NCBI GenBank assembly: GCA_051294375.1
Contig: CM119265.1
Span: 12,009,611 to 12,073,610, forward strand
Length of the DNA stretch: 64,000 bases
Direction: 5' to 3'
Source: Paraspadella gotoi
Taxonomy: Eukaryota; Animalia; Chaetognatha
The translations under genes and the position numbers were made by a program. This document shows, one piece after another, positions 1-64,000 of the stretch. The notes under the pieces are model-generated. The model was not told where the DNA came from. It searched no databases and worked only from the letters and a program-made list of their open reading frames with translations. How positions within the stretch are numbered: the first letter of the stretch is position 1; each line of letters opens with the position of its first letter.

Positions 1-284
1 TATAAGAAATTTTTTGTACATTGAAAGTATACTTAAAAATTCATAAATTTTTGTTTGAGCATGTTCTCATACTAAATTTTTGATTCACCCTATTGAGAGG
101 GGCTTCCCCTATTCAGAAGAAAAAAAGAGAGAAAGAGAGAACGACATATAATTAAAAGAGAGATAGAGAGAAGCCTAACAGCCGCTGGAATCAGAAGCAG
201 CAGCGATGGAGAAAAAGAGAGAGCGACATATTATTAAGAGAGAGAAAAGTTCAACAGCCCTTTTACTCTTACTTAGTAAGTAAG

Positions 285-430
285 TACCTATGGCGCCCGA
301 GGTAGCGCAAACTCCTCCCAATCTGAAGGACTCGGGTTCGCGCCCTTATGATACATACAAGAAATGCAGGAAAAAAAAAAGCGAAAAAAAGGGAGAATGG
401 ATGGTAAACTGCTGACGGCATCGTCTTCAA
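285..430 (+). mobile_element. Degenerate copy of the tRNA-headed small element (same family as 27578-27812), central structured body lost
   Basis: Head GTACCTATGGCGCCCGAGGTAGC..CTCCCAA..GGTTCGCGCCC and tail GGTAAACTGCT..GGCATCGTCTTC match the reverse complement of 27578-27812; the middle is replaced by A-rich sequence. Confidence 0.75.
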
Positions 431-774
431 TATTAGTGAGCCCACAATATATATATATAAATATAAATTTTTTTTGTTAAAAAAAAAAAAAAATAGAGAG
501 AGAGAGAGAGAAAGAAAGAAGCTGGACGACGCTGCATGACGCTGCAGAGCCAGAACTCGTTTTTAGACAAATCAGAAGAAGCAGTGACTGAGAAAAAAAG
601 AGAGAGCGACATAGGTTCTGCGTACAAACGTTGCATTTCGGAAAAAAACGACTCTTTCCACTATTGTTCAGTTGTTACTAACAATGTTGATAAACTTTGT
701 ACCACAACACAAATTAGGCTGAACGAAGGATTGGTTAGAAACATCTCCACCCGTTTCTAATGATAAAAGAATAC

Positions 775-2940: not shown

Positions 2941-4004
2941 TTGTATCAGATTATGTGGCGTCTTACCTAAGACCTTTTGTGTAAGTAAAAGACACGAAGA
3001 TTCTTATAAGGAATTTGATCTTTAAAATTTAACTGTACCATAAAAATTCAAACATACTTATTTCTAAAATTAAGCAGTTAATGAGATTAGATAAACAATC
3101 ATTGAAGAAATCATGTCTTACCGTATTTTTAACTCATAAAAATTTACATGGGAAGTTCTAAGTGATAAGAAGGAGATAACTTGAGACGACCGTTTTTTTA
3201 AATGAAGAAATCTTCGTACTAACCAATAAGATCAAGAACGATGGTAATTATTGAAGTTCAGATTTCGTTGACTAAAAGACTCTGATTGTACGCGAAACCC
3301 ATATAATTAAAAGAAAGAGAGAGGGAAAGAGACATAATTAAAAGGTTTTTGTTTTGTAAATAAAACAAACAAATAGGAATATTGATATGAAACATGGGAA
3401 TTTTAAAGATCTTGATGATTAGAAGCCATATATAAATTTTCAACTCCCTATGATATCACACTTTTAGAAGCCATGATTGCAAAAAAGCGTGACAGACGAC
3501 GACGACGAATGCCTTTCAAGTCAAGTCCAGACGACGACGACGACTACGGCACAAAGAAGCGAAAGCGAATTATTATAGAGACAGGACCGGCTTCGCCCGG
3601 TCTGTCTCGATAAAAAAACGGTAAGTCACAGCCAAACCTATAAAAGCGTTGTAATTTTTATATAAAAACAGCGTGATGCCGACGACGACGTCACAAAGAA
3701 GCCTGGCCTTAACATTATAGAGCCAGGAGCAGGCGAAGCCTGTCCTGGCTCGATAAAAATAGCCATTCATTAAATAAGCCATATTTCCCCTGACTTTGGA
3801 CAGCCTTTGGTGGTTTAAGGCCTCCATCACTCTTATAAGCTAATGACATAATTAATTATATTAGATTTCGTTAGGTCCCCGTTTCTCTAATCGATTAACC
3901 AGAAAGAATTTACTATCACTCATTGCTTAAGGTCGAAATACAAAATTTAATCTGAAGAGACAGTAATTATTGATAAGTGTTAATGACAGAACCGTTCAAT
4001 ATAA

Positions 4005-4170
4005 GCAGTCCCTGAGCTTCGGATCAGGCTGTGACACCATGTTACAGGCGGGTTAAGCGCCCCGTCCCTCTTAACTGCCAGACGACCACCGGGCTATAAC
4101 CCCGGACCTTTGGGTTGGGAGGCGAATGACTTGCCTCCGGCACCAATGGCCGCTGATGAACGGTTGGTGG
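4005..4170 (-). mobile_element. tRNA(Gly-CCC)-like head plus twister-like structured body (diverged family member)
   Basis: Minus strand: tRNA-like segment with CTCCCAA loop, then GCAGT..GGGACGGGGCGCTTAACCCGCC[hairpin]GCCTGATCCGAAGCTCAGGG ACTGC; homologous to 27616-27775. Confidence 0.7.
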
Positions 4171-4392
4171 ATTTTAGGCCACCATAAATCATTAATTGAT
4201 TTCCGATTCCCTCTGACAATGACTTGCTATTATCACAAGATGGTCATTCAATTAAACCGATCACAAAACTTCTTGTACTTTATTTTAAAGGGCATTTTCT
4301 TCGTCATTCGGACCTTCTCACCATTCCTCACCGACATTGCTTTTTCAAGGCTTCCCCCTTTCCCCGTTTTCCACCCTTTACTACCAACCATG

Positions 4393-15800: not shown

Positions 15801-18800
15801 TTCGGAACACTTTTGGAAGTAATCAAATTTTTCGCAAAATAAATTTATTTTTAAATAAAAATTTTCTGGTGATATATCTAGGAAAGTGTCCCCACTACAG
15901 GATGATGTATTCATTTTTATCCTGCGGCCCCTTGGGGTAGCATTTTTTTTCCCCGTTTTACCCCACCCTGGGGTAAAACAGAACACTTAATAAATTATGT
16001 ATAATTTTTTATAATATTACCAAAAATAATAACTAAAACACTATTATTAAAAACAGAGCCTTTCATTTATGTTTTATGTATAAAAAATTTGTGTATAGAC
16101 TTTCGTTTTTTGTTGTTTTTGGGCATTAGGAGAAAAACATTTTTATTTGTTTTGACAACGAATTTTTATTGACAGTTTTTGGCAAAGTGTCTGCCAAAAA
16201 CTGTCAATAAAAATTCGTTGTCAAAACAAATAAAATTGTTTTTCTCCTAATAGGGGTAGCAGCACTCAATGGGGTGAGTCAAAAATTTAGAGCGAGTACA
16301 TGCTGAAACGAATATTTAGACATTTTTAAGAATACTTTCAATGGACAAAAAATTTCTAATATGGCTCTTTACCCTAGTAATTAATTTTTATCGTCCCAAT
16401 CGCTAAGCGTTTGCGACGATATTGTAACACTTTTGCGCATAAGTGGCGTAGGCGTCGTCGTCATCGTCGTTCCAAATTATAGATCGCCTTTTTTATGATT
16501 AAATTTGAGTTTATGAAGCTGAAAATTTATATACAGCTTCTCATCATCGATGTGCTTAAAATTGAGTCTGGACAGTTATTAAATATGTTTTGTTTATGTT
16601 TTATCAAAACAAACAAATTTTCTCTCTTTTATTTTCATATTTCTTTCTCTCTATCTTTTTTCTTTTAATTACATGTCTCTCTCCCTCTCTCTTTTCCCTA
16701 TTCACTGATTCATAATCATAGGGAAAAAAACGAGTCTGCAGCTGGCTCTGCAGGGGCTTATTCTTTTTCTCTATTTTCTCCTGCTGCTTTTGCTGCTGCC
16801 TTTTGAGTGCAGCTGGCTCTGCAGGGGTTCTCTCTTTTCTCCTGCTGCTTCTGCTGCTGCCATTTGATTTCTTTCTTTTTTCTCTCTTTCTCGCTGCGTT
16901 TTTATTTAAAAAAAAAATTGAAATAGGATTGAACTCGTAAAATTAGGCATCGCATTCGTGCATGTTATCATTTTGCTATCGCAACATCGGATTTTTATTT
17001 CGTTTTGACAATAATTTTTTTAATTTTTAAATTTTTTAATTAATTTTTAATTTTTTTAAAATTTTGTTAAAATTTTTTTTAAAATTTTTTTTTTTAATTG
17101 ACAATTGCAAAATAGAATTTTTCTTTCCTTTCTATTCTGTCTTTATTCTTTTCTTCTTTTTCTTTCTGTTTATAAATTATATTTCTTTTCTCAAATTTGA
17201 TTTTTTTTAGTATCAAAATTTGTCGTCAATCCAGATTTTTCTTATGCGATTGCGACGATCCTATTGCTTTTAAGATTTTTTTAATATTTATTTATAGATA
17301 GGAAAGGCAAAAATTTTTTTTTTAATTTTTAAATTTTAAGACCAGATTCAGATAGCTCATAAAAAGTTTTCTACACAAAGTATGATTTTTTAAAAATATT
17401 TTTACGATAAGTGTGTCAAAAATAAGAAAAACTAAAAAATATCATCGTCATCTTTCGATGATTTTATTAGTTTTTTTATATTTTCACTTAGAAAACGTAA
17501 GAATTTTTAAAAGCTGTAATTATATTTCTTGTTTAACTTTTTATGCTCTATCAGAATCCATTAAAAAATTTTAAGATTTTTAAAAAATATTTTTTGCTTT
17601 ATATAGTAATACCATCTTGGAAAATGAATAAGTCGCCAAATTTTAAAGTTAGTTAATTGTATATTAAAATTTAAATATAACAGAAAAAATGGGTATCAAT
17701 ATGTAGTGTGAACTCCCTTGCTCTTCACAACTTCATTTATTCTGTTCGGCATTGACTCATAGAGCGACTGCAGGTATTCCAAGGAGAGGTTATCCCAAAC
17801 TTTTTTGATAAGTCGTTTCATGGCTTGCAGAGATGTTGGACGTTCGTTTCTCAGTCGATTTTTCATCTCTGACCACACACTTTTGATCGGATTGAGATCC
17901 GGAGAGTTCCCAGGCCAGTCAGGTAGAAGTTTAACCCCATTTCGGCGATGCTACTCTCGTCTCCTTGGCTCGATGCAGAGGGGCGTTGTCTTCCATAAAA
18001 ACTCCACCTCGGACAAATTCCTTTATCTTCGCTTCAAGAATTTCTCTGTATTTGGCGCCTTCAACGCGTCCCGAAATGAAGATTAACTTTGACTTGGCAC
18101 GAGAAGATATTGCACCGAACACCATGACCTTCGGTTGTTGCTTAACCGTCTGCAATATGCAATTAGGATGCAATGCTTCGCCGACTCCGCTTCACACTTC
18201 GAAGATTCAGTCTTAGCTGCTTAGATATGGAAGTATTCTTGATACCCGCTTTGTGCAATTCAATTATAAATGCACGTTGATCACTTGTAAAATGCCAACG
18301 TTGAGGCATAATAAAAAAATAGTGTAAAATAAAAAAAAAGAAGGAAAAAAATTATTAAAATCTGAAATACGCCAAAGAAAGCAAATTTTTTTCAATCTCC
18401 TTCCTTTTCTTTCCTCTGCCCTGATGGCAATTTTTATCATAATCTAACATAAATCGGCTCCATTTGATCGAAAATCGCAAAGCTTTCTGGAAATATAATT
18501 TTCTTCTTTCAATTATGTTAGGAAGGTGTTTAAAAATGATCGAGAAGTTTGGCGACTTATTCATTTTCCAAGATGGTATAATATTTTTAATTAGGCGAGC
18601 AACCTCAGAAGAAAGCATTATTGACAAAAAATATTTTAATACCATAATCTATGGTCATGATAGATTATTTTGACGCTGTATACATTAGCATTTAAATTTC
18701 ATCGCCTATGGCTACTCCTAATTAGAGTTTCGTTAACCGTTAATTTTTCAGGAAATTCGCTTAACCTTTAAAACTAACATTTTTAACGGTTAACCATTAA

Positions 18801-24800: not shown

Positions 24801-27800
24801 CGGCACCGTTCCACAGCGCCGTGTAGCGAAACTTGTTCAACGACGCCGACTTTTGCGTCGTCGACGAGAGAAACGACGAGGAGAGCGCCGCAGAATTCGA
24901 GGCGGTGAACGGCGTTGGCAAAACGTCTACAGATTGACGCCGACGACCGTCGCCATGGGAGAGTCGCGAGGAAGAGGCGCCGGCAATCAGCGGCATCGCC
25001 TTGGATCGAGCGCTCGCGGCGTTGCTGGAGCGGATATGATGCAGAGACGGCGTTTCCGCAATTTTGTGGCGTCGTGGCGGCGGAATCGGATTAACGAAAC
25101 GAGGCTTATCTTCCGTGGTGACGTTAGCGCAGCTTTTGGCGAAGTTTTTTTTGTCGGCGTCGATGTTGGGCGATTCGTCAATGAGGGGAATTGTAGACGG
25201 CGTCGAGGGCAAGTAGGCGGCGGCGGCGATGCCTTGGCAGTTGGAGGAGTTTGCCGACGCGACGCCGGAAACTGTGACAGAGTTTTCATCGTTCTCTTCG
25301 CGCCCAACTCCAGATTTCATAGGGGTGGTTTCCAAATAGGGAGTGGCGATAGCGGAAGGTAATTGAGGCGGAGTTGATATCGGAAGCGGAGGAGGCGTTC
25401 CGGTCAAAGAGACAAAGGAAGTAGCGCCCTGTAATAGTTAAGCCAATTGGGAATGAATGTTTTATGAATGTTTTCCTAACCAAGCTACAAATGAGTATCA
25501 AGGATCCTTCAAAAATTTTAGTCCATCAACATACAGTATCGGTTTTGAAGAACCTGGAAAAGTCCAGGAGGCTGTAACTTTTTTGTAAATGCTGGAAATC
25601 AGCTGAAAATCGAATACGGGTTAGACCTGAGGGTGGTTTATTCCCCATAAGAGTTTGAGCCACTTTAAAAAAAAAATAGTGAATGGGCATTTTTTTGGAC
25701 AAAAAATTAATTTGCATACTGTAAAAAAAATATGGTAGTAAATACTCTTATATTATGGTGATATAACCGGGAGGGGTTGCCTAAACCAGTGGTAAAACAA
25801 AATGATCAAATACAGCTTTGTTAAAACTCATTTGCATACAGTAACAATATATTTTTTTATAATATTGTATTTTCAGTCTTATGATAATTTAAAAAAAATA
25901 TTTCAAATAATAGCTAACTGATACACCAATAACATACAATGCATAAATAGAATATTTGTTATTCTTTAATCCAAAATTAATTTTCAACAAATTATAAAAA
26001 TATGCATTTTTTTGAACAAATGTTTTTTTAAAAATAGTAATTATGCCAACCAACTGTCCTTGGTGCACTGATTACAATATATAATTTTTTTTTTAAATAT
26101 GACTACTATATTATGAAATATAACCCTTCAAACCTTAAAAAATACAGAAAAACACCCTTAATTCAAACTTTAATAAAAACCGTTCCAATGATTATTACAT
26201 CTCTCATACTTTAATACATATCAAGGAGAACCATCAGGTTTATTGTGTGAAAGTTATAGATAACTTCGATAAGGAGGATGACTGCACAGGAAGGCGAAAA
26301 ATAGATGATGAACTACATCAGCTTGTAATTGAATAATATACTCTTGCTTAATAAGACGGAACAAAGTAAAAACTAAGAGTTCTGTAATATAAATAACGTT
26401 AGAGCATCCCTGTGGGATGACGAATTGAAAAAAAAAATTAAGATTTTATATATAGTAAATAATATAGAAGCATTTAAGTTTATCGTATTACTATAAATCA
26501 TGAAAATTTTTTTTTTTTCAAAATCAGAATTTTTAAAAGCGGATTTGGGTAGAGATTGAAAAAAAAAAAAAAAAATTACTACAAGATTTTCAAATTTTAT
26601 TGTTTTATTGCTTAATATTAACAAAACTATAAAAATTATGGTAGGACAATGATGATGATGATTTTAAAGAGTTTTTCTGTTATTTGACCCACTTATCATC
26701 AAAATATTGAAAAACGCATTATACTTTTGTGTAGAAAACTTTTTATGGGCTATCTGAATAGGTTCTTAAAAAATAAAAATTTTACTTTGTTCCGCCTTAT
26801 TAAGCAAGAGTATAGTTTTTGTTAATATTAAGCAATAAAACAATAAAATTTGAAAATCTCTGTTAGTAATTTTTTTTTTTTTCAATCTCTACCCGAATCC
26901 GCTTTTAAAAATTCTGATTTTAAAAAAAAAAATTTCATGATTTATAGTAATACGATAAACTTAAATGCTTCTATATTATTTACTATATATAAAATCTTAA
27001 TTTTTTTTTCAATTCGTCATCCCACAGGGATGCTCTAACGTTATTTATATTACAGAACTCTTAGTTTTTACTTTGTTCCGTCTAATTAAGCAAGAGTATA
27101 TTATTCAATTACAAGCTGATGTAGTTCATCTATCTATTTTTCGCCTCCTGTGCAGTCATTCCTTATCGAAGTTATCTATAACTTTCACACAATAAACCTG
27201 ATGGTTCTCCTTGATATGTATTAAAGTATGAGAGATGTAATATCATTGGAACGGTTTTTATTAAAGTTTGAATTAAGGGTGTTTTTCTGTATTTTTTAAG
27301 GTTTTGAAGAGTTATATTTCATAATATAGTAGTCGTATTTAAAAAAAATTATATATTTGTAATCAGTGCATCGAGGACAGTTGGTTGGCATAATTACTAT
27401 TTTTAAAAAAAACATTTGTTCAAAAAAATGCATATTTTTATATTTTGTTAAAAATTAATTTTGGATTAAATAATAACAAATATTCTATTTTATGCATTGT
27501 ATGTTATTGGTGTATCAGTTAGCTATTATTTGAAATACATTTTTTTAAAAAATTATCATAAGACTGAAAAACAATATTGTGGAAGACGATGCCGCGAGCA
27601 GTTTACCGTCCGTTGCACACAAGGTCCCGAACTTTGGATCGGGCTGTAGTCCGACACTACAGGTGGGATAGACGCCCCGTCCCGCTTTTACTTGTGTGAA
27701 TCAGCAGGGCGCGAACCGAGTCCTTTGGGTTGGGAGGAGCTCGTGCTACCTCCGCGCCATAGGTGCTGCTGATTCTCGGACGAGTAGTGGGGTATGAAAT

Positions 27801-28626
27801 ACTACCACTACAATATTATAAAAAATATATTGCTACTGTATGCAAATGAGTTTTAACAAAGCTGTATTTGATCATTTTGTTTTACCACTGGTTTAGGCAA
27901 CCCCTCCCGGTTATATCACCATAATATAAGAGTATTTACTACCATATTTTTTTTACAGTATGCAAATTAATTTTTTGTCCAAAAAAATGCCCATTCACAT
28001 TTTTTTTTTAAAGTGGCTCAAACTCTTATGGGGAATAAACCACCCTCAGGTCTAACCCGTATTCGATTTTCAGCTGATTTCCAGCATTTACAAAAAAGTT
28101 ACAGCCTCCCTGGACTTTTCCAGGTTCTTCAAAACCGATACTGTAACTTATATCTCTTGTTAATAACCTTCATTCTCGGAGTTTGCCCATGCGCCATTTT
28201 ATTCGAATTTTCCTTTCCCGCCAGACGAAAGTCACGTCCTCTATTCCTTCGGTCGGCAAAAGGCAGCGACGAAGAATTGAGGCAGTCTTGTTCTTCCAGG
28301 TTACGCGGCGGAAAAAAGGTCCTGATTCGCGAGGCGGTCACGAGGGACGAATCGAGGGTCGAGAGTCCATCGCTCGTTGATCCCAAAGCGGGGATGTCAG
28401 GCGGAGTAAACAAAACGTCTTCTTCGTCGGAATTGTCTTTGATGGGAAAACAGATTCGATGCGTTAGAGTCAAACGGTGTAGCGCCGGAGAGCGGGAAAG
28501 CCGGACTGACGGAGCTAGGGTGGAAGGTGAAGCGGATGAACGAAGCTCCAGCGCTTGAAGATCTCGGACGCTGCAAGGAAGTTCTTTGTCGCAAACTTTA
28601 TTGACCGGCGGAGGATCCGTCGGCAT
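5276..28626 (-). CDS. DEP-domain plus RhoGAP-like protein, DEPDC1/DEPDC7/LET-99 family, multi-exon with a long low-complexity N-terminus
   Basis: Exons about 28626-28168, 25428-24705 (FRYTALWNGAVAALRENV..EIFS), 15718-15590 (GQDATNVLLKYL..DRSKAVKLGQHLLNNG), 10427-10182 (FEDHASKFFVF), 10117-9978, 9906-9808, then 7676-5276 including LLVPSERRNVLLRLLLFM, VLDTFAPVIF, QYCKTIEEETYEEQK and LYLSIKNDPSM..HPNLFVTQL*; splice phases agree where checked. Confidence 0.85.
7745..9797. mobile_element. 2.05-kb intronic insertion with about 160-bp terminal direct repeats and a 7-bp TSD
   Basis: 7745-7912 approximately equals 9641-9797; flanked by CTTTTCA at 7738-7744 and 9798-9804. Confidence 0.8.
12501..12574. 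repeat. 10-bp tandem repeat (CGTTCAATGC)n
   Basis: About 7 units read directly. Confidence 0.85.
13550..14001. repeat. 18-bp minisatellite (TTGGTCAACTG(A/G)CATAAT)n
   Basis: About 24 contiguous units with no unique spacers. Confidence 0.9.
14640..15330. repeat. Dispersed repeat with an inverted diverged copy at about 22550-23180
   Basis: Shared blocks such as CGCAGTACAAATCTTTGTTAAATAAAAATTTC and its reverse complement at about 22675-22705. Confidence 0.7.
16125..16251. repeat. Near-perfect hairpin with 60-bp arms and a 7-nt loop
   Basis: ATTAGGAGAAAAAC..TTTTTGGCA aagtgtc TGCCAAAAA..GTTTTTCTCCTAAT. Confidence 0.9.
17612..18576 (-). mobile_element. Internally deleted Tc1-like transposon with frameshifted transposase remnant
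   Basis: 29-bp TIR CCATCTTGGAAAATGAATAAGTCGCCAAA, TA TSD; residues KVMVFGAIS, FMEDNAPLHRAK, WPGNSPDLNPI and LYESMPNRI..KSKGVHTTY. Confidence 0.92.
18912..19522. mobile_element. hAT-like MITE (TAAGGCGTAGT family)
   Basis: TIR TAAGGC(G/A)TAGT, 8-bp TSD TTACCCAT; copies at 47502-48109 and partial at 46193-46636. Confidence 0.9.
20092..20747. mobile_element. Tc1/mariner-type MITE
   Basis: Long TIR CAGAAGGCTTCATATTATAAAATG.., TA TSD. Confidence 0.88.
20889..20930 (-). ncRNA. Minimal type I hammerhead ribozyme
   Basis: GACG CUGAAGA AGGCUU..AAGCC GAAAC AU GUA CGU; palindromic ACAUGU stem III. Confidence 0.8.
21096..21136 (+). ncRNA. Minimal hammerhead ribozyme, mirror copy with a stem III mismatch
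   Basis: GACGCTGAAGAAGGCTTGTAAAAAAGCCGAAACATATACGT in the right arm of palindrome 20837-21189. Confidence 0.65.
25534..28143. mobile_element. 2.6-kb foldback element with about 1.1-kb inverted arms
   Basis: CAGTATCGGTTTTGAAG.. and ..CTTCAAAACCGATACTG, TA TSD; arms about 25534-26632 and 26811-28143. Confidence 0.92.
27578..27812 (-). mobile_element. 235-bp TG..CA-bounded insertion with tRNA-like head and twister-like body
   Basis: Absent from the opposite foldback arm (empty site at about 25855-25870); TGTGG..CTACA termini, ATAT TSD (alternatively an 8-bp ACAATATT TSD); A box TGGCGCGGAGG, B box GGTTCGCGCCC. Confidence 0.88.
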
Positions 28627-28756: not shown

Positions 28757-30325
28757 TTAAGTCCTGCTCTTCTCCCTCTTCTTTATCTTCTTCGGCGGCG
28801 GCTCCAAAAAATCATCGTCTTCATCAATCTCCATCATCGTTCGAGACAAAGAATCGTCCAGCGTCCGCGCGGGCAAAGGAGATTCTTCAATCTTCAACTC
28901 GGATTCGGCTTCTCGTTCTCTGTTCTTCTTTTTCTTCTTTTTGGGCAAATTACCGATCGTCGTCTTGCTCTCTATCTTTTCCTGCTTCTTTTTCTTCATT
29001 TTTTTCGAGGCGGAGGCGGATTGGTCGAGCCAGGAAGAGTCTGTCGTCGTCGTTGTCGCTGAATGAAGAGAGACGACGCCAGAATCGTTGTCTTCGTCGT
29101 CGGCGGTTCCGTTCAATTTTCCCATCGACGATTTTTTCTTTTTTCGTTTTTGTTTTCCTTCTTCTTCGTCGTCGTCTTCTTTATTTTTTTCCTTTTTCTT
29201 CTTTTCGACGGGAAATTCAGGAATGGGCGTCACCACCGCCGCGGAGGGAATCTCGAAGTCGTCAAGACCGTCAGAAGAATCCGTGGACGCAGCCTCGACG
29301 GAAGCGGAAGTGGAAGCGACGAATCGATCAGAGGAAGCGGCGTAGGTCGTCACGGGTTGCGCATCATCGTCAGCGACGTTCTCGTCCTTTGCTTCTATCG
29401 ATGTCTGAGTCTCATCCATGTTCTTCTTGAGGCGAAGTTCACCGCCAACCAAGGCGCCGTGAATCGTGACGGAATCGGACGTGAAAAGGACATTCGTCAC
29501 CTTTGAAGAAGAATATTGTGAGTTATGTCTTTAGTAAATTAATTCGAAACACATTACTGAAACCTCGAACTCCATCTCGTCCCCGTCGGCGACATCGCCC
29601 AACAGATGACTCTCCATTTCCGTGACCCAGACGCAAGCGTTGAACACGGTGTGAACCAAACAGCCGACGAAGTCGCGTGAGCTCCGGTTGTTTACAACGC
29701 CACGCAGAATCTCGCCAATTTCCGGTCTAATGAAAAAGAGTGAGGAAAAGATTGTACCGCTAAAAATTACAAGGGCAAAATTTCATGCCAAAGTTACTTG
29801 AAAGTATAAACCGTCGTTTTAATTTTGTGAAACAGCCACCTCAAGTCGTGTTCGAAGGAACCCGCGCTGCCTGTAAAGTTTAGTTAACGATTATCATTTC
29901 GTATATTTTTAAACTTAAAACTATCTGATTCTCGAATTGTACTCGCCCGTAAGAAGCGTGGATTTGCCAAAGGCCACGACAATGCCGCCGTAAACTGACG
30001 AATACTTGAAGAGCTCATGATTCAACACTTGAGCGATACCAGCAGCCTCGCGACCGATGAATCTAAAATATCGAATTTGTCCCGATATTTCCCATTTGTT
30101 AGTTCAAATTAATCATTTCATTTACCTGCAATGCATAGATATCGACTTGACGATTTCCGTCTTGACGATGCCAGACCTTTCATCGGCGGCGAGCTTCGAT
30201 ACGATCGCGGGCACGAATAGCGACGAATAAAGATGGCGCTGTTCGAGTTGTCTTTCGCGGAGAAGGCGTCGGGGATTGTCGCGCAGGTTGGCGAAATGCC
30301 TTCGCGGAGGAGACGACGAAGACAT
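28757..30325 (-). CDS. POLR1F: RNA polymerase I subunit RPA43
   Basis: Spliced ORF ..GIAQVLNHELFKYSSVYGGIVVAF..PEIGEILRGVVN..FVGCLVHTVFNACV..GDEMEFEVTNV..IHGAL plus a lysine-rich tail. Confidence 0.88.
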
Positions 30326-31399: not shown

Positions 31400-31926
31400 T
31401 CATTTTCCTTTCTCTTTAAAATATTCGCGCAATTTCTCCAACGCCTCGACGCAGACGGAGGGATACATGGTGTCGGTGTAGGTCCCCACGATTACCAACG
31501 TGTCCGTCCGAACCAAGATGAGGCCGTGGTTGTCGTGCTTGCCGTAGATGGCGTGCCTGTCTGCCCTGAAAAGCGGGGATGAGGGTTATCGAGTCAAAGG
31601 AAAGAGACTCGACATAATCCGAGCCAAACTTACCTAACGCACATGAAGGTTCGTCCCCGGAAGTGGAATCCATCGTTTCTCAGCAGCGCCGTGTTTTTGA
31701 AGGCATCGACGAGTCTACGACAAGAATCGGGATCAAGGTCGAATCCCGCTGTGCAAGCTGAGGAGAGGACAGGAGAAGTTGAGGATGAGAGGAAATACCT
31801 TGTCAATAGAAAACGTATGAGGTTCTGACCGGCGAGATGATGATCCTTTCTTCGGATTATCGCCGCGTTAGAGACGTTTTCCGTTCCGATGAGAGCATCG
31901 TGAAGGAGATGCTTGAGCACGTTCAT
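31400..31926 (-). CDS. PFN4: Profilin-4-like, 3 exons
   Basis: MNVLKHLLHDALIGTENVSNAAIIR..GFHFRGRTFMCVR|ADRHAIYGK..VGTYTDTMYPSVCVEALEKLREYFKEKGK*. Confidence 0.88.
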
Positions 31927-32723
31927 CCTCTGAATAATACTTTTTTTTCTACTTCTTTTATTATCGCAGTTTTTTTTTCATAAATACTTCCTCGATGATG
32001 TCTATCCCTGAGAGATTTCTGCAAAATACAAATTAACAAATTAGCGATGCGACTCACTCTTGATTACAATTCCATGTGAATCAATTTATGCAGCAAGTAT
32101 ATTACAAAGTTGTTTTTTTTTATGGAGACGGCATCATAAAAAAGGATTGATGATAAGATATATACAATTAATATATATCAGTAAGAAATACATTCTAGCA
32201 AAAATTTAATTTTAAACTTCAGATGACCGAAATAATACAACATAAAATTGAACATTTGATTTAATCCATTTTTATGGTCGCCCCCAGATATTAAACGCGG
32301 GAAAGTGCCGAAATCGAAAATGGTAGCGATGCGAACATCTCCGGTTTTACCAAAAGAAAAAAAGAATAAAGTGGGCAATAAAAACTGGAGGATGCCACGT
32401 TCAAATGAATAAGCGAAAACTGTCATTCAGATGGTCCGGTCGTGGACCCTCTTTTTATTTTAGCACAATCATTAATTGATCACGATGATAAAACGTTATC
32501 TTCCGGAACAAGGTGGTGGGTTAAAAAAAATAACGGAACGGAATGTCAACGAAACAGGTATGTGGGGTTTTTGTTTGTATTTTATTTCCTTGTGTAACAG
32601 TTCATATCGATAAGAATGCATTTGAAAACAATGCAATGGAAGAGACAAAACAAAGAAAGAAAAAAGAAAAAGAGAGAGAATGGGTTGGGTGAAGGTGTGA
32701 AGGAATTAATCAAAGCGGAGAGA

Positions 32724-35700
32724 TCAATTTTCATCGTCGCTTTTGTCGCCATTTCGGTGAGGAGATTTGCTGATTGAAAGATGGTGGTGAGGGTAAGGGA
32801 TTAAAATGAAAATTAAAGCGACCTGGAAAATTCGTCAACTCTTCCACAAACAAACCTTTCGCGCGAATCGGAACGGCCCCGGGATCTAGATCTCTCGTGG
32901 GATTTCGAATTGATTTCATCCCGAGAATTGGACCGATCGCGAGATATGGATCGACGGAAAGCTCTTTCCTTGGAATGGTCACGGGATCGCTTGTCGGCCT
33001 TTTCCGCGGAATGGGAACGATCCCTCGAGCGTTTGTCCTCTCGCTCGACGGATTTGCGTCGCTCCTCGGTTTTTTCGTCGGAATGGGAACGCTCCCTTGA
33101 ATGAGATCGCGGGTCAGCTCGATCGTTAGATGTTGAACGCTCTCGGGATCCAGAAATACGACGTGCTTTTGACTTCTCGGGTTTAGCCTCTTCTTTAGAT
33201 CTTTCTTGAGATTGAGAGCGCTCGCGAGATTTGGACTTAGACCTTTGCTGCGACGGACTACGAGATCGGCTCCTGCATAAAAAAAGTGGGGAAAAAGTTT
33301 GAAAAAAGGTTATTCATAACCAATAACCAACCTTCTTTTGGATCTTGAAAAGCTTGAAAAAAGGTTATTCATAACCAATAACCAACCTTCTTTTGGATCT
33401 GCTCCGGGAACGGCTTCTCGACTTGGACCGTCTTTTCGATCGAGACCGGCTGCGTGAACGCGATCTGCGACCGGGCTTGTCCTCAATCAAGCGAATTCGT
33501 CTTGAGGGGAAATAATTATAAAAAAATAATTTTCATTCATCTACCCTTCCGGTCCCTTCCTGAATACTGTCCGACCTCCAATAATTTTTTCACCTCCCGT
33601 TGAGCTCCGTGTCATCGAGAATGTCCAATGCTTTCTCCATTCCGTCGCGAGTCACGAACTCTACGAGTCCTTCGTTCATGCGCGACTTGTGGGCGTCGGT
33701 GAAGGTGACGTCGCCCGCCTTGCGCATGTAGTCCTTCAAGTCTTGCCTGAAGGAATCGAGGATTTGAGTTGCGGTCCAAGAGGGCATTTTTTTTAATACG
33801 ACAACAAACGGCTTATTGTAAACGATTAGTTTTTAAGTAACAAAGTACTTTTTAGATACAAAAAATAAAAATGATTGAGAAGGTGAGTTTTATTATTTTT
33901 TTTTATCCATCAACAAGATTCAGTCGTGGACTGAACCAAAGTCACGGCCCTGGTCAATTTCTTAAATTTCTCAACTTTCAATGCCCCTTTTTTTTCTAAT
34001 TAGCTGAAACAAAATTAATTTTTCGTCTTACAAAGTATGAAAAATTGCAAGATTACTTAAAAATATAAGAAGACAAAATATAAAATTTTAAAATAAATTT
34101 AAAAATTTAATAAATTTCACTATATGTGGATAAGGCGCTGCGTGGGCTGAAGATGACTGTCCGTAACTTCTATAACCCCCTCTATCAGCCATGGAACAGG
34201 TGACTGGGCTTGGAACCAGGCTTGAGCGTTTGCCAGGTCCCCAAGGCGGCTTACGGCCGTCCTCACGCTTCCCGCAGGGTAGATACCGGGTTAGGATTGA
34301 ACCAGGTACCTAGTGGTCATGAGCTGATGGCTTTACTCAATGAGGCACCGGGTCACGACTGAAGGCGTCATGCTTTTTGGCGGGGTGAACCTATGCAATG
34401 CCCGACTACATATATTAGATTTAAGTATATTCTTTATATAGAGAATATTCTTTCATAATGTGACGTAATATACAACACGAAGTTAAAAGTTATTTTCTGC
34501 TCTAGTTTTCTAATTAGATATTAGACATCATTCTTGTAAAGAAGTTATTTATTGAAAATTTCAAAATGTGATTGAATTTATACTAGTGCCTGAATCTAGA
34601 TTCAGATTTTCAAAAAACTTTCAAAATATGATCAGAACCATATTTAATGGAAATTAGATACACAGCCGGTAGGTCAAGTATGCTCAAAAGGTTAGTAATA
34701 AAAATCGAGTGACTCGAATATGCAAATGAGATTAATGCGTCATCCTAAGCCTTAGGCTAAGGTTGAATATAAGGTAAAAGAGAGCATAAACATTTTAATA
34801 ATAACTATTTTTTAGAAAAAACAATTAATAAATATGTTTTAACAAATTTTGATAGTTCTGTATAATAAAAAATATTTAAAAAAGCTAATTAATCTAATAA
34901 TATTAACATGGATATCGAAATTTTATAAATTTGTATTTTTTTTTTATTTTCATTATAAAATTGGTAAAACAACTTTTTTTAATTTTAAAAAATTATTTTA
35001 AAAAATATTTTTTTTTTAATAAACAATCAATTGGTTCAAGAAAATTACATTATTACAATACAATTGAAACATTCTTTAAAACATTATACCATTTCATTGA
35101 TAAGGAAGCCAGGTACTCTGGGAGTAAATAAACGAGACTGTGAGTAAGGGTAGCCCCACTCAATGGAGTGAATCAAAAATTTAGAATGATTATATGCTCA
35201 AACAAAAATTTATACATTTTTAAGTATACTTTCAATGGACCAAACATTTCTTATGTGGCTCTATACCTAAATAATTATTTTTTTAATATTTATTTATAAA
35301 TAGCAAAGGCCAAAATTTTTTTTGATAATTTTTAAATTTTAAGACCTGATTCAGATAGCTCATAAAAAGTTGTCTACACAAAGTATAATTCTTTTTTAAA
35401 TATTTTTATGATAAGCGAGTCAAAAATAAGAAAAACCGTAAAAAATCATCATCATCATCATCTTTCGATGATTTTATCAGTTTTTTTATATTTTTACATA
35501 GAAAACGTAAGAATTTTTAAAAGCTGTAATTATATTTCTTATTTAACTTTTAATGCTCTATCAGAATCTATCAAAAAATTTTAAGATCTCAAAAAAAAAT
35601 TTTATAATGTTAAAAAAGACAAGTAATATTTAATGTATTAATCAATACGTATAATATAAATTTTTTTTGAAAATGATTGTTTAAATATTTAGTCAAGACA

Positions 35701-38700
35701 ACTAAAAATACTTTGCTAATAGTCGAAATTTTATATTATCTCTGAAGTTGGTCCCTACTGTGAGAGAGTCCTAATTGTAAGCTTGCAGGGACCTGCTATG
35801 TCATTATCTTATAGGAGAGATGGAGGCCTTAAACCACCAAAGCCTGTCCATTGGACAGTGTCCACTGTCCAAAGTCAGGAGCAAGATAGCTTATTTATTA
35901 AATGAATGGATAATTTTTATATTGGTTGTACCAATTTCATAAAATTCATCTCCTTGTATTTTGATTTTTGATGCCGAGTAGAGTACAATATAGTATTCCC
36001 CGATCTAATACTTAAGGGAGTGGTATTTTCATACAATTGATACATTCTTTGAAACATTATACCACTTTATTGATAGGGAAGCCAGGTACTTTAGGAGTGA
36101 ATAAACAAGACTGTGAGAGAGTCTTGATTGAAAGCTTGCAAGAACCTGCTATGTCATTATCCTGTAAGAGTGATGGAGGCCTTAAACCACCAAAACCTGT
36201 CCAAAGTCAGGGGCAAGATAGCTTATTTATTAAATGAATGGTTAATTTTTATATTGGTTGTACCAATTTCATATTATAAACACTTTTAATAGGGAAAAGT
36301 CATTGACTCTTTTTGACAAAAACTAATTTCTTCTTTTTCAATTTTTGTACCAATCGATTTTGTCGTCCGATAACTTTTAAACACTTGTACCAATCGCTTT
36401 ATCGTTCAATAAGCTTTATTTTATGTATCTATATCTTTGTAAAATTCAGCCATACAATACGGTTTTTTTCGATGTGAAAAAGTGGTTTTTTTTTGCGCCG
36501 TAGTGTACAAGATAATGACAGAGCAGTTCCTTGCAAGCATTCAATCAAGACTCTTTCACAAACTCGTTTATTCATTCCCACAATATAATTTTGACATAAT
36601 TGTATTTGCAAGTACAAAAAGTATATTTTTTACCAAATATTTTGACTTATTTTTTAAGTTATTATCAGTGGTAAAATATTTAACAAGAATTAACAGTTTT
36701 TTCTGGAAACAAATAAGAAATATAGAGAGAGACTAAGAGAGAGAGAGGGAGAGAGTGTAGAGAAGTTTCCGTCTCTCTACGCCGCTCGAAGCAATATCAG
36801 TTGGTCCAGGAAAGGCTTGGCTAAATACCGCAAACGACAAGGCATCCACTGACTCTATATCATGAGTATAATCTCGAAGACAATGTAAGAGAAATCATAG
36901 AGTAAATCGAAGTGTAATTCTAAAGAAATGCATCAATAATCCGTCATATAATCCAGCAATAATTCGTTAAAGCCAGTGTAAAATGCCGTAGGAAAATGGT
37001 TAAAATACCGAGGGAAAATCGTCCAAGCGAGCGGAATCTATCAACTGAATTCGCGATCCAAAGTCTGACTGAGGTTGACCGGGGGAGAAGAGGAGAGAGC
37101 AAGAGAGAGAAGTCTCTCTCGGTCCACAAACTATCTGGTTCTACTTCACCCCCACCAGTGGTCAATCAAACGGGTCTCAATCAATCATAGTTTCCCTCGG
37201 TTCTAAAATTTAACATCTAATGACTAGATAAAGGTATGACCAAAAAACTAAAAACACCATGATCTGGTGAAAAACTAAATAAGACCATCTTCTTATTTCA
37301 TTCTTCTTCTTTGTTTCATTTTTGACGCTATGATTCCACATTTCAGGCGTCCATTCCATTTTGTTCCAGTTTCTGAAGTTCCTCCTGACGGCCCCGGCGA
37401 TGTTGTTGTTCTTGAATCCCCATCATGCACCGGCTGCTGTCTTCTCTCAGAGTCGCGTCATCACTCGGATTCGTTTCTTAAAAGAAAGGTTAGAGGGAAA
37501 CAAAGAGCAGTCTGTTTCCTAATATTTGGTTCTTGTCCGTTCTTTTGTTTAGATTCTTTCGTTCCATTTTGTGATCATAGGGGTGCCGTAAAACTCAGCA
37601 AATCAAAGTCGTAGGTTCTTTAAAAAAAATATTTATGAAGAATAATTTAATTCTTTAAATCCAATTCCTTGAAACGATTTCAATTCATCATTCATTTATG
37701 GCTTAAATACATCTTACCTCTTGAAGACGCCAACCGTACAAAATTGTATTTATCCAGTCTCGAAATATTCATGCTCAGGTTGCTGTTGCTGTTAATTCTT
37801 TTCAGAGTGGATGACCTCTTCTGTGTCCAAAGTTATTCAGATTCAATCAAGGATCCAATCAACGATATTGATGAAGGAATGTTTTGGATCAGGGATAATA
37901 ATTTGATAATTCAATTCAATTCATAATTCAAAGGGGTTCATAATTCATAAGAACAATCAAGGTTTTCATCACAGAAGGGTTTCAAATAAAGTCTCCATAC
38001 CATGGAATTGAAAGATAAATAGAGCTCAAAATGAGCAGGCCCCCCTTGGTTTATGCAAATGAAAGGCCCCAACGATGTAGCCGGGTCATTGACGCGTCAT
38101 TGGTTGAGATGACAATCTTATTGAGTTCGTTGTCATTGCATTAGGCAGACTTCCTTGCGGGAAAAGATCAAGTGCAACTTAAATGTCTCTCTGGCCTGAT
38201 ACGCCTGCCACTTTTGTGGCAGGAGTGACGGACTCCTCTCCCTCCTCATGTAGCCGTCGTTTTGGGCGGCGCTCATTTTGAGCTCTATCATAATTCATAA
38301 TTATTCACTTTAACAGTCACTTATCTATCCCTCACAAAAAATTTATCATTTCACATTTAAAAACTTTCTTTCGTTTCATTACTATCTATTATTAGATTAA
38401 TTGTTAAATTCACTATTAGTTTAAACTTATTCCTGGTTGTACATTGCACAATGTATTATTTTGTCTCTCTCTGTTTCTCTCTCTCTCTCTCCTTCTCTCT
38501 CTCTCTGTCTCTCTCTCTTTCACCAATTGACCATTTCACTTCTTTTCACAACTGATCTGTCCTCAACTTAAACTGTACTCATTCTTTAAACCACTATCTC
38601 TGTGTTGGAAACTTTTTGCCCCCTCTCTCTCTCTCTCTCCCTTCTTTTGCACAAATTTATAAATGTTTATTAACGCTAATGAAGGCTCGAAAAAAGAGTC

Positions 38701-41700
38701 GAAACATGTCCGTACAAAAATAAAATCGTTGAAGAACTTATTTTCGAACTTTGCTTAAATCTCAACTCAACGAAACTGAAAGGATTAATACAAAACATTC
38801 ATTAAAAAAATATTAGTTTTTAGCTTAAGCCAAGGGTGTTGAAGAGCTAAAATATTTAAATATTTTTTTAAATATTTATAAATTATAAATTATTATTTTT
38901 TTAAAGATAACTTTCTTTAAGTTTTAAGCTTTAAGTTAATCAATTAATTTAATAATATTTTTTAAAACTGAAAACCCCAAAAACTTCTATGATCCAAAGC
39001 AATTAATTTTAATTTTTAATCACAAAATGTAATTGTTACAAGATAAAATTATTTAAATAATATTCGGATATTACTATAAAAAAATGTTTACTTTATACTA
39101 TATAAATATAATTTTATTTAAAAAATAATTTAAAAAATGATATCTGCATATAAATTTTATACGGATAAGAGTAATAGTTTGGTTTAACTCTATATACAAA
39201 TATTTTGTTATTAAATAAAATAATTTTTTTTAATATACATTAATTTAAAAAAAAATAATTAATTGGTTTTTACTTTGTTCATTAAATAATTGTTTAACAA
39301 AGAAGTTTGTTTTTTCACTAAATTTAAAAACACAAGGAAAAGAAAGTTATGATTTATTAAATATTCATTAAAAATAATTACCTCTTATAATCCGATTCAT
39401 ATATTTAAATTAATTCATAAATTCATTTAGAAACTATTTTACTATATAATAATATTGTTAATTGTTAATTAACTTACTTGATTAGCAAATTATTAACAAA
39501 TTTAAATTATAAACATTGTGTTGAACTTTTTTATTGCATTTTTAAATTTAGAAAAAAAATTAGTGGTAATAACCTTTCTTTTTTCGTTGTTATATGTATT
39601 GAGGCAAAAGGTTTTAGTTCACAACAAATTTTATTTTTCATAGAAAACGTATATGTTTCGCTTTGGATGCAAGCCTTCTTCAGCGTCAAATGATTTGTGA
39701 AATTTTGGACAGTTTTTTTTGTGTGAAAGAAGAGAGAGAGAGAAAAAAAAATGTTATATTAACAAAAAAATTTAATGAATTTGTTAACAATTTTATTTTT
39801 ATCGTTGTTAACAAATTCATTAAATTTTCTTTGTAATCAACAAAAAAGAAAGGATCAAACCATAAATATGTTAACAAATATTTTTTTAATAAAAAAGTTT
39901 TTTTTAAGTTTAAATTTTTTAGGAAATGTTTGAGTGCCAAAACAACAATTTTTTATTATCAATAGTACATGTTTCGACTCTGCTGGTTCGAGTCTTCATC
40001 AGCTTTGAAAACATTAACAAAAATGCTCTACACATTAAGTTAGAGAGAGAGAGAAAGAGAGAGTGAGAGAGATTGAGGGAGAGTTTCCAACAAAGGGCTG
40101 AGTAAAGGACAGTGGCCAGATGAGAGGACAGGTGAAGGTAAGAACAGAGAAGAAGATAATTTTGAAATGGTGAAAAGTGAAAGAGAGAGAGAGAGAGAGA
40201 AAAATAATTACATTTGACAATGTACAACAAAAATAAATTTAGAAAACTTAGAAATAAGCTGAGATTTTGAATTAACAAAAGTTAAATAAGTAATAATGAA
40301 AATTGAAATGGAGGAATAGGTTGTGAGGGATAGATAAGTTAATAGTTAAGTGAAATATATAAGAGAAGAAAGAGCTCAAAATGAGCTGGCCCCCCCCGGG
40401 CGGACAAAGGTGGGACGCTGACGATATGATGGGGTCATTGGCTTGTCATAGACTGAGATGATATTCTTGTAGAGTGGGATATCATGGGGTCAGGTAAAGA
40501 CCTGGCTGGGAAAATACCAAGCGCCACTCTAATATCTCTTTGGTCTGATAAGCCTGCCGAAGGGCCTCCTCTCACCTGACGGTGAGGTGGGCGGTTGCCT
40601 GTTCTTGCCCGTTTTGGTGCAGGAGATACAGACTCCTCTCCCTCCTCCTGTAGCCGTCGTTTTGGGCGTTCTGGCGTTCAGAGAGTCACGCCAAGTTGCT
40701 ATAGGTTCGGGAGAGGTATTGGACGTCCATTGCCTGCCAGGAGGCCTCCGCCTGACCCGTTGAGTTGGGACGGGGAATCACCGTGCGGTTGGGGTGGCAT
40801 TGGGTGTTCCACCACCAGTTTGATTAGCGAATCATAGCTTGGAGGGAGATTGAATCATCCTCCATCACGGTTCAAAGAGGGTTCGAGGGCTTTGATGTAA
40901 ACAGCCTCTCTAATACCTCTAATCAGCTCATTTTGAGCTCTTTCTTCTCTTATATATTTCACTTAACTATTAACTTATCTATCCCTCACAACCTACTCCT
41001 CCATTTCAATTTTCATTATTACTTATTTAACTTTTGTTAATTCAAAATCTCAGCTTATTTCTAAGTTTTCTAAATTTATCTTTGTTGTACATTGTCAAAT
41101 GTAATTATTTCTCTCTCTCTCTCTTTCACTTTTCACCATTTCAAAATTATCTTCTTCTTCTCTGTTCTAACCTTCACCTGTCCTCTCATCTGACCACTGT
41201 CCTTTACTCAGCCCTTTGTTGGAAACTCTCCCTCAATCTCTCTCACTCTCTCACTTTCTCTCTTTCTCTCTCTCTCTCTAACTTAATGTGTAGAGCATTA
41301 TTGTTAATGTTTTCAAAGCTGATGAAGACTCGAACCAGCAGAGTCGAAACATGTACTATTGATAATAAAAAATTGAAAATTTTAATAGACACATTTTAAT
41401 CCGACAATATTTTAAATAAACCAGTCTGGGTGTCATTCTGTTCGTTTTTCCAAGCTCCTTTTAACTAAAAAAGTTTTATTTAAAAAAAAACTTTTTCGCC
41501 CGAGCCAGGGGTGTTAAAGACCCAAAATATGAAATTTAACCTTTTATGAGTATTTTTTAGCTTTTTTCAGTAAATTTTTTAATATAATTATCATTAATCC
41601 AGTTAATTATTAATGATACTGCTTTTAATTTATCATATTTAACTATTTTTAAAACATTCATTCACAAAAAATATTAGTTTAGGGCTTAAGCCAGGGGTAA

Positions 41701-50582: not shown

Positions 50583-50887
50583 GGCTACCGATAAAAGGAA
50601 GTACCTGAGAAAATTCTGCCTCACAAAAACGCAATCAGCTGATTATACCCCACAACCCAAGAAGCTATAGAGAAATTAAAATCTATAGTAAAAGATATAA
50701 AGTTAATAATACAAAATAAACGTCTAAACAAAAAAAATTTTCACAGATTCCACTTACACCGGTTATTTACGATAGTATGACTGATTAGGTAATGACTAAT
50801 CAAATTATTGAAATATACGCAAAGTATAACTATTTAACGAATTAAATAAAAAAAATAATAAATATATTGTTCGTCCACAATATCATT

Positions 50888-63689: not shown

Positions 63690-64000
63690 TTATTTGTTTT
63701 TCTTCAACGTCCTTTGCTTCTCTCCAAACTCGACTATCTTTTCGTCCACTTTGATTCCCTTCCGTCTCCTGACATCGTTCATGTACTTCCGAGCTACATT
63801 TTCGCTGTCCGCCTTTTCACCAAAATGCGCGTATTCTTCCTCCGTGGTCGGCACCCACAGCGGGTCTAGATCGAAGGTTTCCCAGTGGCTGAAGACGAGT
63901 TGGGGACTGGCCAATCCGCTCGTCCGCTTTCGCACCTCGTCGCAGAAGCCGAAGGATTCGACGACAGGAAGAACGGCGTCGATTACGAAAACGTTGGAGC
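63690..64000 (-). CDS. EFL1: Elongation factor-like GTPase 1 (EFL1/EFTUD1/Ria1), last exon, partial
   Basis: [69 protein letters not shown]. Confidence 0.96.

Follow-up and report, generated by a model that had tools for sequence, protein, structure and literature searches.

Short animal LTRs with a tRNA-type Pol III promoter and a 4-bp target site duplication (TSD) are known from Helenus and TRIMp3 (Kojima 2024, PMC10886601), and the element described here (element A) is thus not a wholly new system. Like A, these elements have short LTRs with TG..CA ends, occur as solo LTRs and carry tRNA-derived A and B boxes in which GGTTC is kept. In animal Helenus the tRNA in the LTR is accompanied by a 4-bp TSD and a Gypsy-type PBS, and the whole element, two LTRs with a short non-coding stretch between them, is under about 1.3 kb (PMC10886601). 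The 5' termini of several animal LTRs, e.g., TGTAGTGG, are similar to that of A (Data S1, PMC10886601). The main text on Helenus names neither a ribozyme nor an annelid (PMC10886601). Element A differs from Helenus in the ~130 bp 3' of the B box, which contain a twister core, and in having no T-tract; by eye, many published Helenus LTRs have a T-tract after the B box. In Helenus-2_SyJa and Helenus-2_SyUm, from Synergus wasps, the sequence directly downstream of the B box reads, by eye, as a hammerhead core. These two have in common with A a 4-bp TSD and an LTR in which, on this reading by eye, a small ribozyme core comes after a tRNA-like unit. They are two-LTR elements with a 277-bp LTR (PMC10886601, Data S1 and Table S1), and their core, unannotated in PMC10886601, looks like a type III hammerhead rather than a twister.

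LTR retrozymes have been described mainly from plants, with a hammerhead and no evident promoter, and animal retrozymes have been described as non-LTR elements. The plant elements (Cervera et al. 2016, PMC4918200; PMC7761336) resemble A in their 4-bp TSD, lack of coding capacity, many solo LTRs, presumed mobilisation by Ty3/gypsy elements and an LTR that holds a ribozyme, a predicted one in A. Their ribozyme is a hammerhead rather than a twister, circular RNA has been shown for them, and they seem promoterless (review PMC7761336), whereas the LTR of A has a tRNA-type unit. No hammerhead in the LTR of A was matched by Rfam. Because its predicted ribozyme is of the twister type, A would be retrozyme-like in its working yet lie outside the retrozyme class as defined. 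Cassandra TRIMs (PMC10886601) also carry a Pol III promoter in the LTR, but they are plant elements with a 5S rather than a tRNA promoter and no ribozyme.

Twisters are common in eukaryote genomes and few have an assigned job; PMC8501958 gives one, in a non-LTR element. The twister variants of Perere-3 from Schistosoma (Liu et al. 2021, PMC8501958) are like A in belonging to an animal retrotransposon and in having an altered P1. Unlike A, Perere-3 is a non-LTR RTE element with a TPRT-type TSD, and its twister lies at the 5' end with P1 completed by the TSD. The type-P5 twister (RF02684; PMC5408937) shares with the A family the P5 permutation, GA followed by the T1 strand, U|AA, P3, a 3-bp T1, a 2-bp T2 and a P4 with a U-NNN-AA-NN loop. 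The A family departs from it in a palindromic P1 hexamer without a loop, a P2 of three pairs and a bulge, and an Rfam score below gathering. The pairing of a tRNA-like promoter and a twister in one LTR was not found in the published literature. Thus, of the combination put forward as new in the initial annotation, the twister half appears to be new, and the tRNA half had already been described.

Insertion, ends and copies of element A

Element A lies in the right arm of a ~1.1-kb host inverted repeat in the 64-kb window (the whole stretch of DNA analysed; Table 1). The arms are identical in 1072 of 1113 columns when A is skipped. The right arm reads ATAT[235 bp]ATAT, and the left arm has one ATAT and no element. 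The host repeat is therefore the insertion site of A and is separate from the retroelement. The clean insertion claimed previously is borne out by this sister arm, and the sequence of A agrees with the minus-strand termini TGTAG..CCACA and the absence of a poly(A) or simple-repeat tail.

Table 1 Features of element A and related sequences in the window
Feature	Position	Strand	Remarks
Element A	27578..27812	-	235-bp LTR-like unit, TGTAG..CCACA, likely solo LTR
TSD, left copy	27574..27577	.	ATAT
TSD, right copy	27813..27816	.	ATAT
Empty target site	25862..25865	+	single ATAT, sister arm of host inverted repeat
Host inverted repeat	25532..28145	.	foldback/MITE-like; arms 25532-26631 and 26811-28145
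5'-terminal hairpin of A	27784..27812	-	
tRNA-like unit of A	27699..27775	-	10-bp closing stem; predicted internal Pol III promoter
A-box-like, A	27749-27759	-	
CUCCCAA loop, A	27730-27736	-	in tRNA-like unit
B-box-like, A	27707-27717	-	GGTTC
Twister-like ribozyme, A	27616..27698	-	predicted, P5-permuted
P5	27691-27698/27616-27623	-	
P2	27682-27685/27665-27667	-	
Catalytic-G position	27681	-	
T1	27677-27679	-	with loop L4 27631-27638
Self-complementary hexamer	27671..27676	-	replaces P1; predicted to pair two copies
Predicted cleavage site	27668..27670	-	between 27670 and 27669; U|AU in A, U|AA in most other copies
T2	27663-27664	-	with 27631-27632
P3	27644-27662	-	
P4	27639-27643/27626-27630	-	
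3' end segment of A	27578..27615	-	U5-like; no T4 terminator; ends CCACA
Sister element E	34125..34410	-	286 bp, TGTAG..CCACA, 4-bp TSD TATA, tRNA-like unit
B box of E	within 34125..34410	-	GGTTCAATCC
Twister core of E	34200-34276	-	intact
Diverged relative B	3975..4185	-	tRNA-Gly(CCC)-like unit; intact twister core 4007-4077
Decayed relative C of family A	283..446	+	tRNA-like unit; 3' end CCACA then ATAT

An 8-bp direct repeat flanks A, and the sequence of A alone is compatible with a TSD of either 4 or 8 bp. We read further copies from contigs of public sequencing runs (X3, X9 and X6, among four runs). Among the matches listed, loose contig ends in X3 fall at 27578 (n = 31), 27577 (n = 16), 27579 (n = 9) and 27812 (n = 14), in X9 at 27578 (n = 4) and 27813 (n = 4), and in X6 at 27578 (n = 5) and 27814 (n = 3). 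Under the 8-bp reading, ends are expected at 27579 and 27809. The contig ends of many copies thus pile up at TG..CA, which decides for the 4-bp ATAT duplication and against the 8-bp one. The ends are fixed across dozens of contigs, and a 4-bp AT-rich TSD, as annotated, was read at two loci only (ATAT at A, TATA at E); these features support interpretation of A as a solo LTR. Pairs of TG..CA ends with a 4-bp TSD spaced 200-320 bp apart occur twice, against 0.1 expected. The copies of A are many and have many distinct flanks, and we conclude that A is one copy of a high-copy mobile element.

In one X9 contig (depth 87) the sequence passes from 27812 to 27578, so that the end of the LTR leads on to an LTR start again, with the letters and length of the middle unread, as an internal region or a tandem would give. 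This head-to-tail joint was seen in a single contig from one of the four runs and is absent from X3, the deepest. The final letters of the X3 loose-end consensus at 27578 are a possible PBS start, with an agreement of only 0.42 over 31 contigs. The window itself holds single units only, and no two-LTR copy with PBS/PPT was found in its 64 kb. No reverse transcriptase or integrase was found in the window with Pfam among 109 ORF pieces, which are mostly GC-rich, so that AT-rich ORFs may be missed.

The tRNA-like unit and sister elements

The tRNA-like unit begins ~46 bp inside A. The B box motif GGTTC is exact in A and E, and the A box (TRGCY..YGG) has two mismatches in A and is imperfect in E as well. 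Neither ARAGORN at default settings (0 genes in the window) nor Rfam at the gathering threshold (0 matches in the window) reports a tRNA in A. At a relaxed ARAGORN threshold tRNA-Gly(CCC) was called for relative B only, and the unit of A was called at a still lower threshold, as Leu. Of the Gly-CCC-like unit with A and B boxes originally annotated, the boxes stand and the Gly-CCC identity was obtained for B and not for A. Judged by its sequence, the unit is predicted to be an internal Pol III promoter and non-functional as a tRNA. A, B and E have no T4 run.

The sister families of A in the window were missed in the initial annotation, as were the P1 palindrome and the probable loss of catalysis in the window copy of A. 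Element E has no significant primary-sequence similarity to A (score 24 versus a null maximum of 39), and the two have in common their termini, a 4-bp TSD and the order of tRNA-like unit and then twister. As a whole, E folds no better than its shuffles (z = -0.88). The ends of B are eroded and no TSD was established for it; C has lost its twister region. A further family in the window, D, carries the same twister variant without a tRNA-like unit, from which it follows that the ribozyme could derive from another element. In A, B and E alike, the predicted self-cleaving ribozyme occupies a constant position in the LTR, next after the tRNA unit.

The twister-like motif

The twister-like fold noted initially is borne out in A, with a canonical core in most other copies and deviations in the window copy. 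A relaxed twister descriptor, written after seeing A and B, was matched by 1 of 2000 shuffles of A. For covariation we used six motifs from four families, three of the rows being near-identical D copies, with the structure drawn from A and B. Pairing is held in 69 of 72 cells, a paired fraction reached by none of 500 shuffles, and slid controls gave 19-50%. Seven of the 12 pairs, including those in T1 and T2, are changed on both sides, and compensatory changes were found in T1, T2, P2 and P4. T1 (3 bp) is paired in 17 of 18 cells with changes on both sides, the single miss being the window copy of A. T2 (2 bp) is paired in 12 of 12, again with changes on both sides, and P4, with its conserved loop, in 22 of 24, with three of four pairs covarying. 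Most A copies, as well as B, D and E, have the general-base G with an A directly after it and the U|AA cleavage site.

All six motifs have a P2 of three pairs with a single bulged base, versus four pairs in the twister class. An altered P2 length might disrupt the twister active site (review PMC5408937), and natural twisters that have been assayed tolerate imperfect P1 and P2 helices (PMC11662667). An intramolecular P1 is absent, and all motifs have in its place a 6-nt self-complementary linker without a loop. P1 has been reported as dispensable in twister ribozymes. Replacement of P1 by a self-complementary hexamer suggests that cleavage may be carried out by paired copies.

Twister-P5 is the top Rfam match for E (19 bits, E = 0.12) and D (25.9 bits, E = 0.00096, the best score), and none of the motifs reaches the RF02684 gathering score of 37.6. 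For A and B, Rfam gave no twister match at E <= 10, and for A no match of any kind. Above 8 bits, a covariance model of the six motifs recovered only one additional sequence, a degenerate D copy at 35808-35884. Relaxed ARAGORN settings read the twister domain as a second tRNA (Tyr or Leu), which we rejected on the T1/T2 covariation and the Rfam ranking. Two pattern matches, one in viral_contigs and one in metagenome_contigs, are attributed to chance, as they lie in prokaryote-like sequence with the rest of the motif absent; further pattern scans of viral contigs gave 0 matches. The two strands of A fold about equally well (z = -3.64 for plus versus -3.39). Energy therefore gives no choice of strand, which is set by the motifs.

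The window copy of A departs from the twister core at 27668 (the second A after the cleavage site) and at 27635 (one T1 pair). Based on depth, the canonical letter at 27668 is carried by 275,534 of 277,535 in X3, 933 of 935 in X9 and 119 of 119 in X6, and at 27635 by 231,482 of 244,450, 1,395 of 1,587 and 300 of 300, respectively. Because of these two departures the window copy is predicted to be inactive and is probably catalytically dead as a ribozyme.

Mobilisation of element A and alternative explanations

We consider A likely to be a solo LTR of a non-autonomous, Helenus-type mini-retrotransposon that has a predicted Pol III promoter and twister and resembles plant retrozymes. In a two-LTR copy, Pol III would initiate within the 5' LTR at about 27766 and, with the terminator absent, would be expected to read through. 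Pairing of the palindromes would bring together the twister of the 5' LTR and that of the 3' LTR, both would cut, and the RNA released would be of unit length, with a 5'-OH and a cyclic phosphate at its ends. After ligation into a circle, this RNA would be reverse-transcribed with a tRNA as primer, and Ty3/gypsy proteins would carry out the integration. Recombination between LTRs, or short cDNAs made from the circle, could give rise to solo LTRs.

The twister might instead only make the 3' end of a Helenus-type TRIM RNA, replacing the T4 terminator, with no circle. The RNA, begun by Pol III in the 5' LTR and ended by cleavage in the 3' LTR, would then have ~97 nt of terminal redundancy and undergo ordinary LTR reverse transcription. 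The lack of a T4 run in A, B and E, whereas many published Helenus LTRs have a T-tract, fits such a role, and Cassandra transcripts begin in one LTR and end in the other, with short redundancy (PMC10886601). However, both LTRs would contain the same ribozyme, a palindrome-paired dimer would cut both, and there is no evident way to spare the 5' one; we regard this explanation as unlikely. It is also unlikely that A, as a solo LTR of the usual Helenus kind or as an LTR from an autonomous Gypsy element, captured a piece of a Penelope/Naiad-type element or SINE together with its twister, which would then be a passenger or would not cleave. The occurrence of the variant without a tRNA unit in family D, the proposal by Kojima of SINE capture into LTRs (PMC10886601), the P2 one pair short and the missed Rfam thresholds are all compatible with capture. 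A neutral passenger is expected to decay, but the core is canonical in most A copies and in B and E, which are widely diverged from one another, with compensatory changes in T1, T2, P2 and P4.

Ginger-like DNA transposons, which are related through their integrase to Gypsy, also fit TG..CA ends and a 4-bp TSD. A non-autonomous element of this kind, with TGT..ACA ends and a small RNA cassette, would account for the single units in the window. The termini of A are complementary at only four of five bases and there is no long TIR, a promoter and ribozyme imply an RNA intermediate, and one head-to-tail joint was found in X9; such an origin seems very unlikely. Least credible is a tRNA-derived SINE that used target-primed reverse transcription and left an 8-bp TSD, as might be read from the flanking direct repeat and the tRNA-like unit. 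The terminal T and ACA belong to the element in other copies, which places the ends at 27578 and 27812, the tRNA unit is internal with no tail after the element, and the termini recur in E next to a 4-bp TSD of another sequence. We reject an ordinary SINE on the fixed TG..CA ends, the 4-bp TSD, the lack of a tail and the internal tRNA unit.

Returning to the retrozyme-like mini-retrotransposon, we propose more tentatively, and at somewhat less than even confidence, that A belongs to a lineage of LTR retrozymes in animals that is driven by Pol III and uses a palindrome-bearing twister dependent on dimer formation. Two ribozymes would be united only in a transcript spanning both LTRs, from which the monomer would be cut out and circularised; solo LTRs would stay uncut. 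The lines of work on twisters and on retrozymes would meet in an animal LTR element that combines a twister with a tRNA-type promoter of its own. If this is true, a natural twister variant would gain a directly testable role, possibly one of counting, with cleavage dependent on two LTRs, and a new source of small circular RNAs would be predicted in invertebrates. Together with the hammerhead-bearing wasp Helenus, it would point to a repeatedly evolved, unnamed class of animal mobile circular RNAs.

Insertion, ends and duplication of element A

Element A, the LTR-like insertion of 235 bases, is a GC-rich island (GC 0.57) within AT-rich DNA. Of the two arms of an inverted repeat, it interrupts the right one; the left one holds a single ATAT (25862-25865), and the arms match at 1072 of 1113 columns once the element is skipped, which upholds the initially annotated clean insertion with an empty sister arm. 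An empty allele is present in X3 (joint 27570-27820), one of the public sequencing runs (X3, X6, X9 and X10) whose contigs were aligned to this region. The minus strand begins with TGTAG and ends with CCACA, with no tail at the end, as first read.

By itself, the sequence of A is compatible with a 4-bp or an 8-bp duplication. Among the rows listed for the 1147 X3 contigs aligned, loose contig ends fall at 27578 (at least 31), 27577 (at least 16), 27579 (at least 9) and 27812 (at least 14); those listed for X9 fall at 27578 and 27813 (at least 4 each), and for X6 at 27578 (at least 5) and 27814 (at least 3). Because the ends pile up there in all three runs, the terminal T and ACA are part of the element. 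The contig ends rule out the 8-bp duplication in favor of the 4-bp one and confirm fixed ends across copies. Thus, A is a real high-copy LTR-like element, and the copies of its family lie in many different surroundings.

Such fixed TG..CA ends, together with a 4-bp duplication, indicate an LTR integrase, and we regard an LTR origin of A as very likely. The rival readings are a SINE, considering the tRNA-like unit, against which the tailless, fixed ends speak, and a Ginger-like DNA element.

Features of the window (coordinates of the window)
Feature	Position	Strand	Description
Element A	27578-27812	-	ATAT duplication
A-box-like motif	27749-27759	-	in element A
B box	27707-27717	-	in element A; GGTTC
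B, diverged relative of A	3975-4185	-	
C, decayed relative of A	283-446	+	
Remnant resembling C	~1795-1845	+	decayed; anticodon-loop/B-box-like motif, then A-rich tract
E, sister element	34125-34410	-	286 bp; TGTAG..CCACA ends, TATA duplication
D, AT-rich repeat	36161-36216	+	
D	61410-61465	-	
D	3785-3840	-	
D	35808-35884	+	
Inverted repeat	25532-28145		high-copy, foldback/MITE-like; ~1.1-kb arms, 96% identity; between coding stretches
TGTGG..CCACA stretch	49850-50879		1030 bp; ATAT each side
CENP-B/Tc5 HTH protein and DDE_3 transposase fragments	50891-51883, 17699-18191	-	
GC-rich island	40380-40870		flanked by inverted repeat, in AT-rich DNA
Profilin	31403-31977	-	
RPA43	29534-29782	-	
RRM/SR protein	33593-33832	-	
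EFL1	63693-63998	-	

The TGTGG..CCACA stretch has no internal direct repeats and no twister; it could represent a further LTR-type insertion or have arisen by chance. The GC-rich island has no Pfam match. Among named proteins, those of the annelid Ridgeia piscesae come nearest to the host proteins (66% and 80%), though for EFL1 the lead over vertebrates (77-79%) is small. By protein match the host would be an animal, probably an annelid.

A predicted twister variant in A, B, D and E

Mapped on the available class description (PMC5408937), the order of parts at 27616-27698 is that of a P5-permuted twister. A descriptor derived from A and B was found in 0/2000 (strict form) and 1/2000 (relaxed form) shuffles of A. 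Five loci of the window matched the strict form, where shuffles had 0-2. They are B, D and E, the latter two being new motifs of normal GC content, and two AT-only matches, which were dropped as junk. An alignment of six motifs from only four families (A, B, E and three D copies) has 69 of 72 cells paired, and both partners vary in 7 of 12 pairs, T1 and T2 among them. Shuffles reached this paired fraction in 0/500 cases and this covarying-pair count in 6/500; slid controls gave 19-50%. P2 consists of three pairs and a bulge in all six motifs. In place of P1, each of the four families has a self-complementary hexamer (GGCGUC, GGCGCU, CGGCCG, AGGCCU), at a chance of ~0.05-0.07 per family, A and B being related. 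Pairing of such palindromes would have an analogue in the dimer cleavage described for Penelope hammerheads in the literature available. The best Rfam matches of E (19 bits, E-value 0.12) and D (25.9 bits, E-value 0.00096) are to Twister-P5, both under its gathering score (37.6), and neither A nor B has an Rfam twister match. Judged by sequence, the ribozyme is a twister variant, with the catalytic core and pseudoknots of the class and departures in P1, P2 length and Rfam score.

The window copy of A has two core defects, U/AU in place of U/AA at 27668 and a T1 mismatch at 27635. The canonical letters make up 275,534/277,535 and 231,482/244,450 of X3 depth, respectively, and X9 and X6, the other runs covering both positions, are alike. 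Since changes at the second A of U/AA nearly abolish activity in the natural twisters tested (PMC11662667, in the part available), this copy is probably dead. The annotated twister-like fold is retained as a core order, in a copy predicted to be inactive; the family ribozyme looks intact, and we think it likely that the family holds an active twister.

A rival reading of the twister is that of a passenger motif. In E, an intact twister core comes after a tRNA-like unit whose B box is perfect, and E aligns with A at chance level (score 24, null maximum 39). End pairs of the TGTAG..CCACA type with 4-bp duplications at 200-320 bp number 2, against 0.1 expected. The anatomy shared by E and A in unrelated sequence argues that the tRNA-then-twister arrangement is selected. 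D has a compact twister core without P3 or a tRNA unit, a perfect palindrome (AGGCCU) replacing P1, and undefined ends; it may represent the tail of a Penelope/Naiad element or a different LTR. Craig et al., in the part available, report no canonical hammerhead in Naiads.

The tRNA-like unit and a possible circular RNA route

In A the A-box-like motif and the B box lie 42 bases apart inside a stem-closed domain. Neither ARAGORN nor Rfam calls a tRNA gene in A; at relaxed thresholds ARAGORN gives tRNA-Gly(CCC) for B and a doubtful Leu for A, so the annotated Gly-CCC identity fits the A/B lineage only loosely; the A-box-like motif and the B box are present. A separate locus in X9, X6 and X3 contigs matches A at 27704-27754 only, the tRNA-like unit, with a T4 run directly after on the sense strand. 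One of its contigs has a depth of ~10,600 in X9, far above the rest. It may be a small, independent Pol III gene or repeat and the source of the unit in A.

For A we infer a two-LTR non-autonomous element, and a short two-LTR form of the family seems reasonably probable. Direct indication of it comes from a single X9 contig (depth 87), which exits the LTR at 27812 and comes back into it at 27578, a joint absent from X3, X6 and X10 contigs. The sense strands of A, B and E are free of T4 runs. With no terminator to stop it, Pol III would initiate near 27766 and continue through both LTRs, whose twisters would pair via their palindromes and cut at 27670/27669. Cleavage would release a monomer without terminal redundancy. 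Its ligation into a circle and reverse transcription from a tRNA primer would then restore two LTRs, the scheme put forward for plant retrozymes (PMC4918200 and PMC7761336, in the parts available). We give this circular route for the family slightly less than an even chance; its rival is that the twister acts as a terminator only.

Relation to known TRIMs and retrozymes

Helenus elements are TRIMs with tRNA-derived LTRs, a Gypsy-type PBS and solo LTRs, with 4-bp duplications in animals; they span six animal phyla, Annelida not among them (Kojima 2024, PMC10886601, in the part available). A is probably a Helenus-type TRIM. In the available text of that paper the word "twister" does not occur, and retrozymes appear solely as a group apart. 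Eleven short motifs of twister type or taken from the element revealed no twister in an LTR of its Data S1, where line wraps may hide matches. According to the available parts of a 2026 preprint and a 2020 review, animal retrozymes are non-LTR and LTR retrozymes mainly plant. A twister is linked to a retroelement in Perere-3, a non-LTR element (PMC8501958, in the part available). The claim of a new combination holds in that no twister within an LTR or TRIM was found in the literature covered (mostly non-subscription, with Repbase and Dfam outside its scope), and gives way in that tRNA-derived LTRs with 4-bp duplications are known from Helenus.

A resembles LTR retrozymes in its predicted mode of working; as defined, however, these carry a hammerhead, and A, with a twister variant, falls outside the definition. 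By eye, a core of the type III hammerhead follows closely on the 3' side of the B box in two Helenus LTRs of Synergus wasps in the available Data S1 (Helenus-2_SyJa-LTR and Helenus-2_SyUm-LTR); PMC10886601, as available, leaves this core unannotated. With this precedent, the overall design of A is less novel and more plausible.
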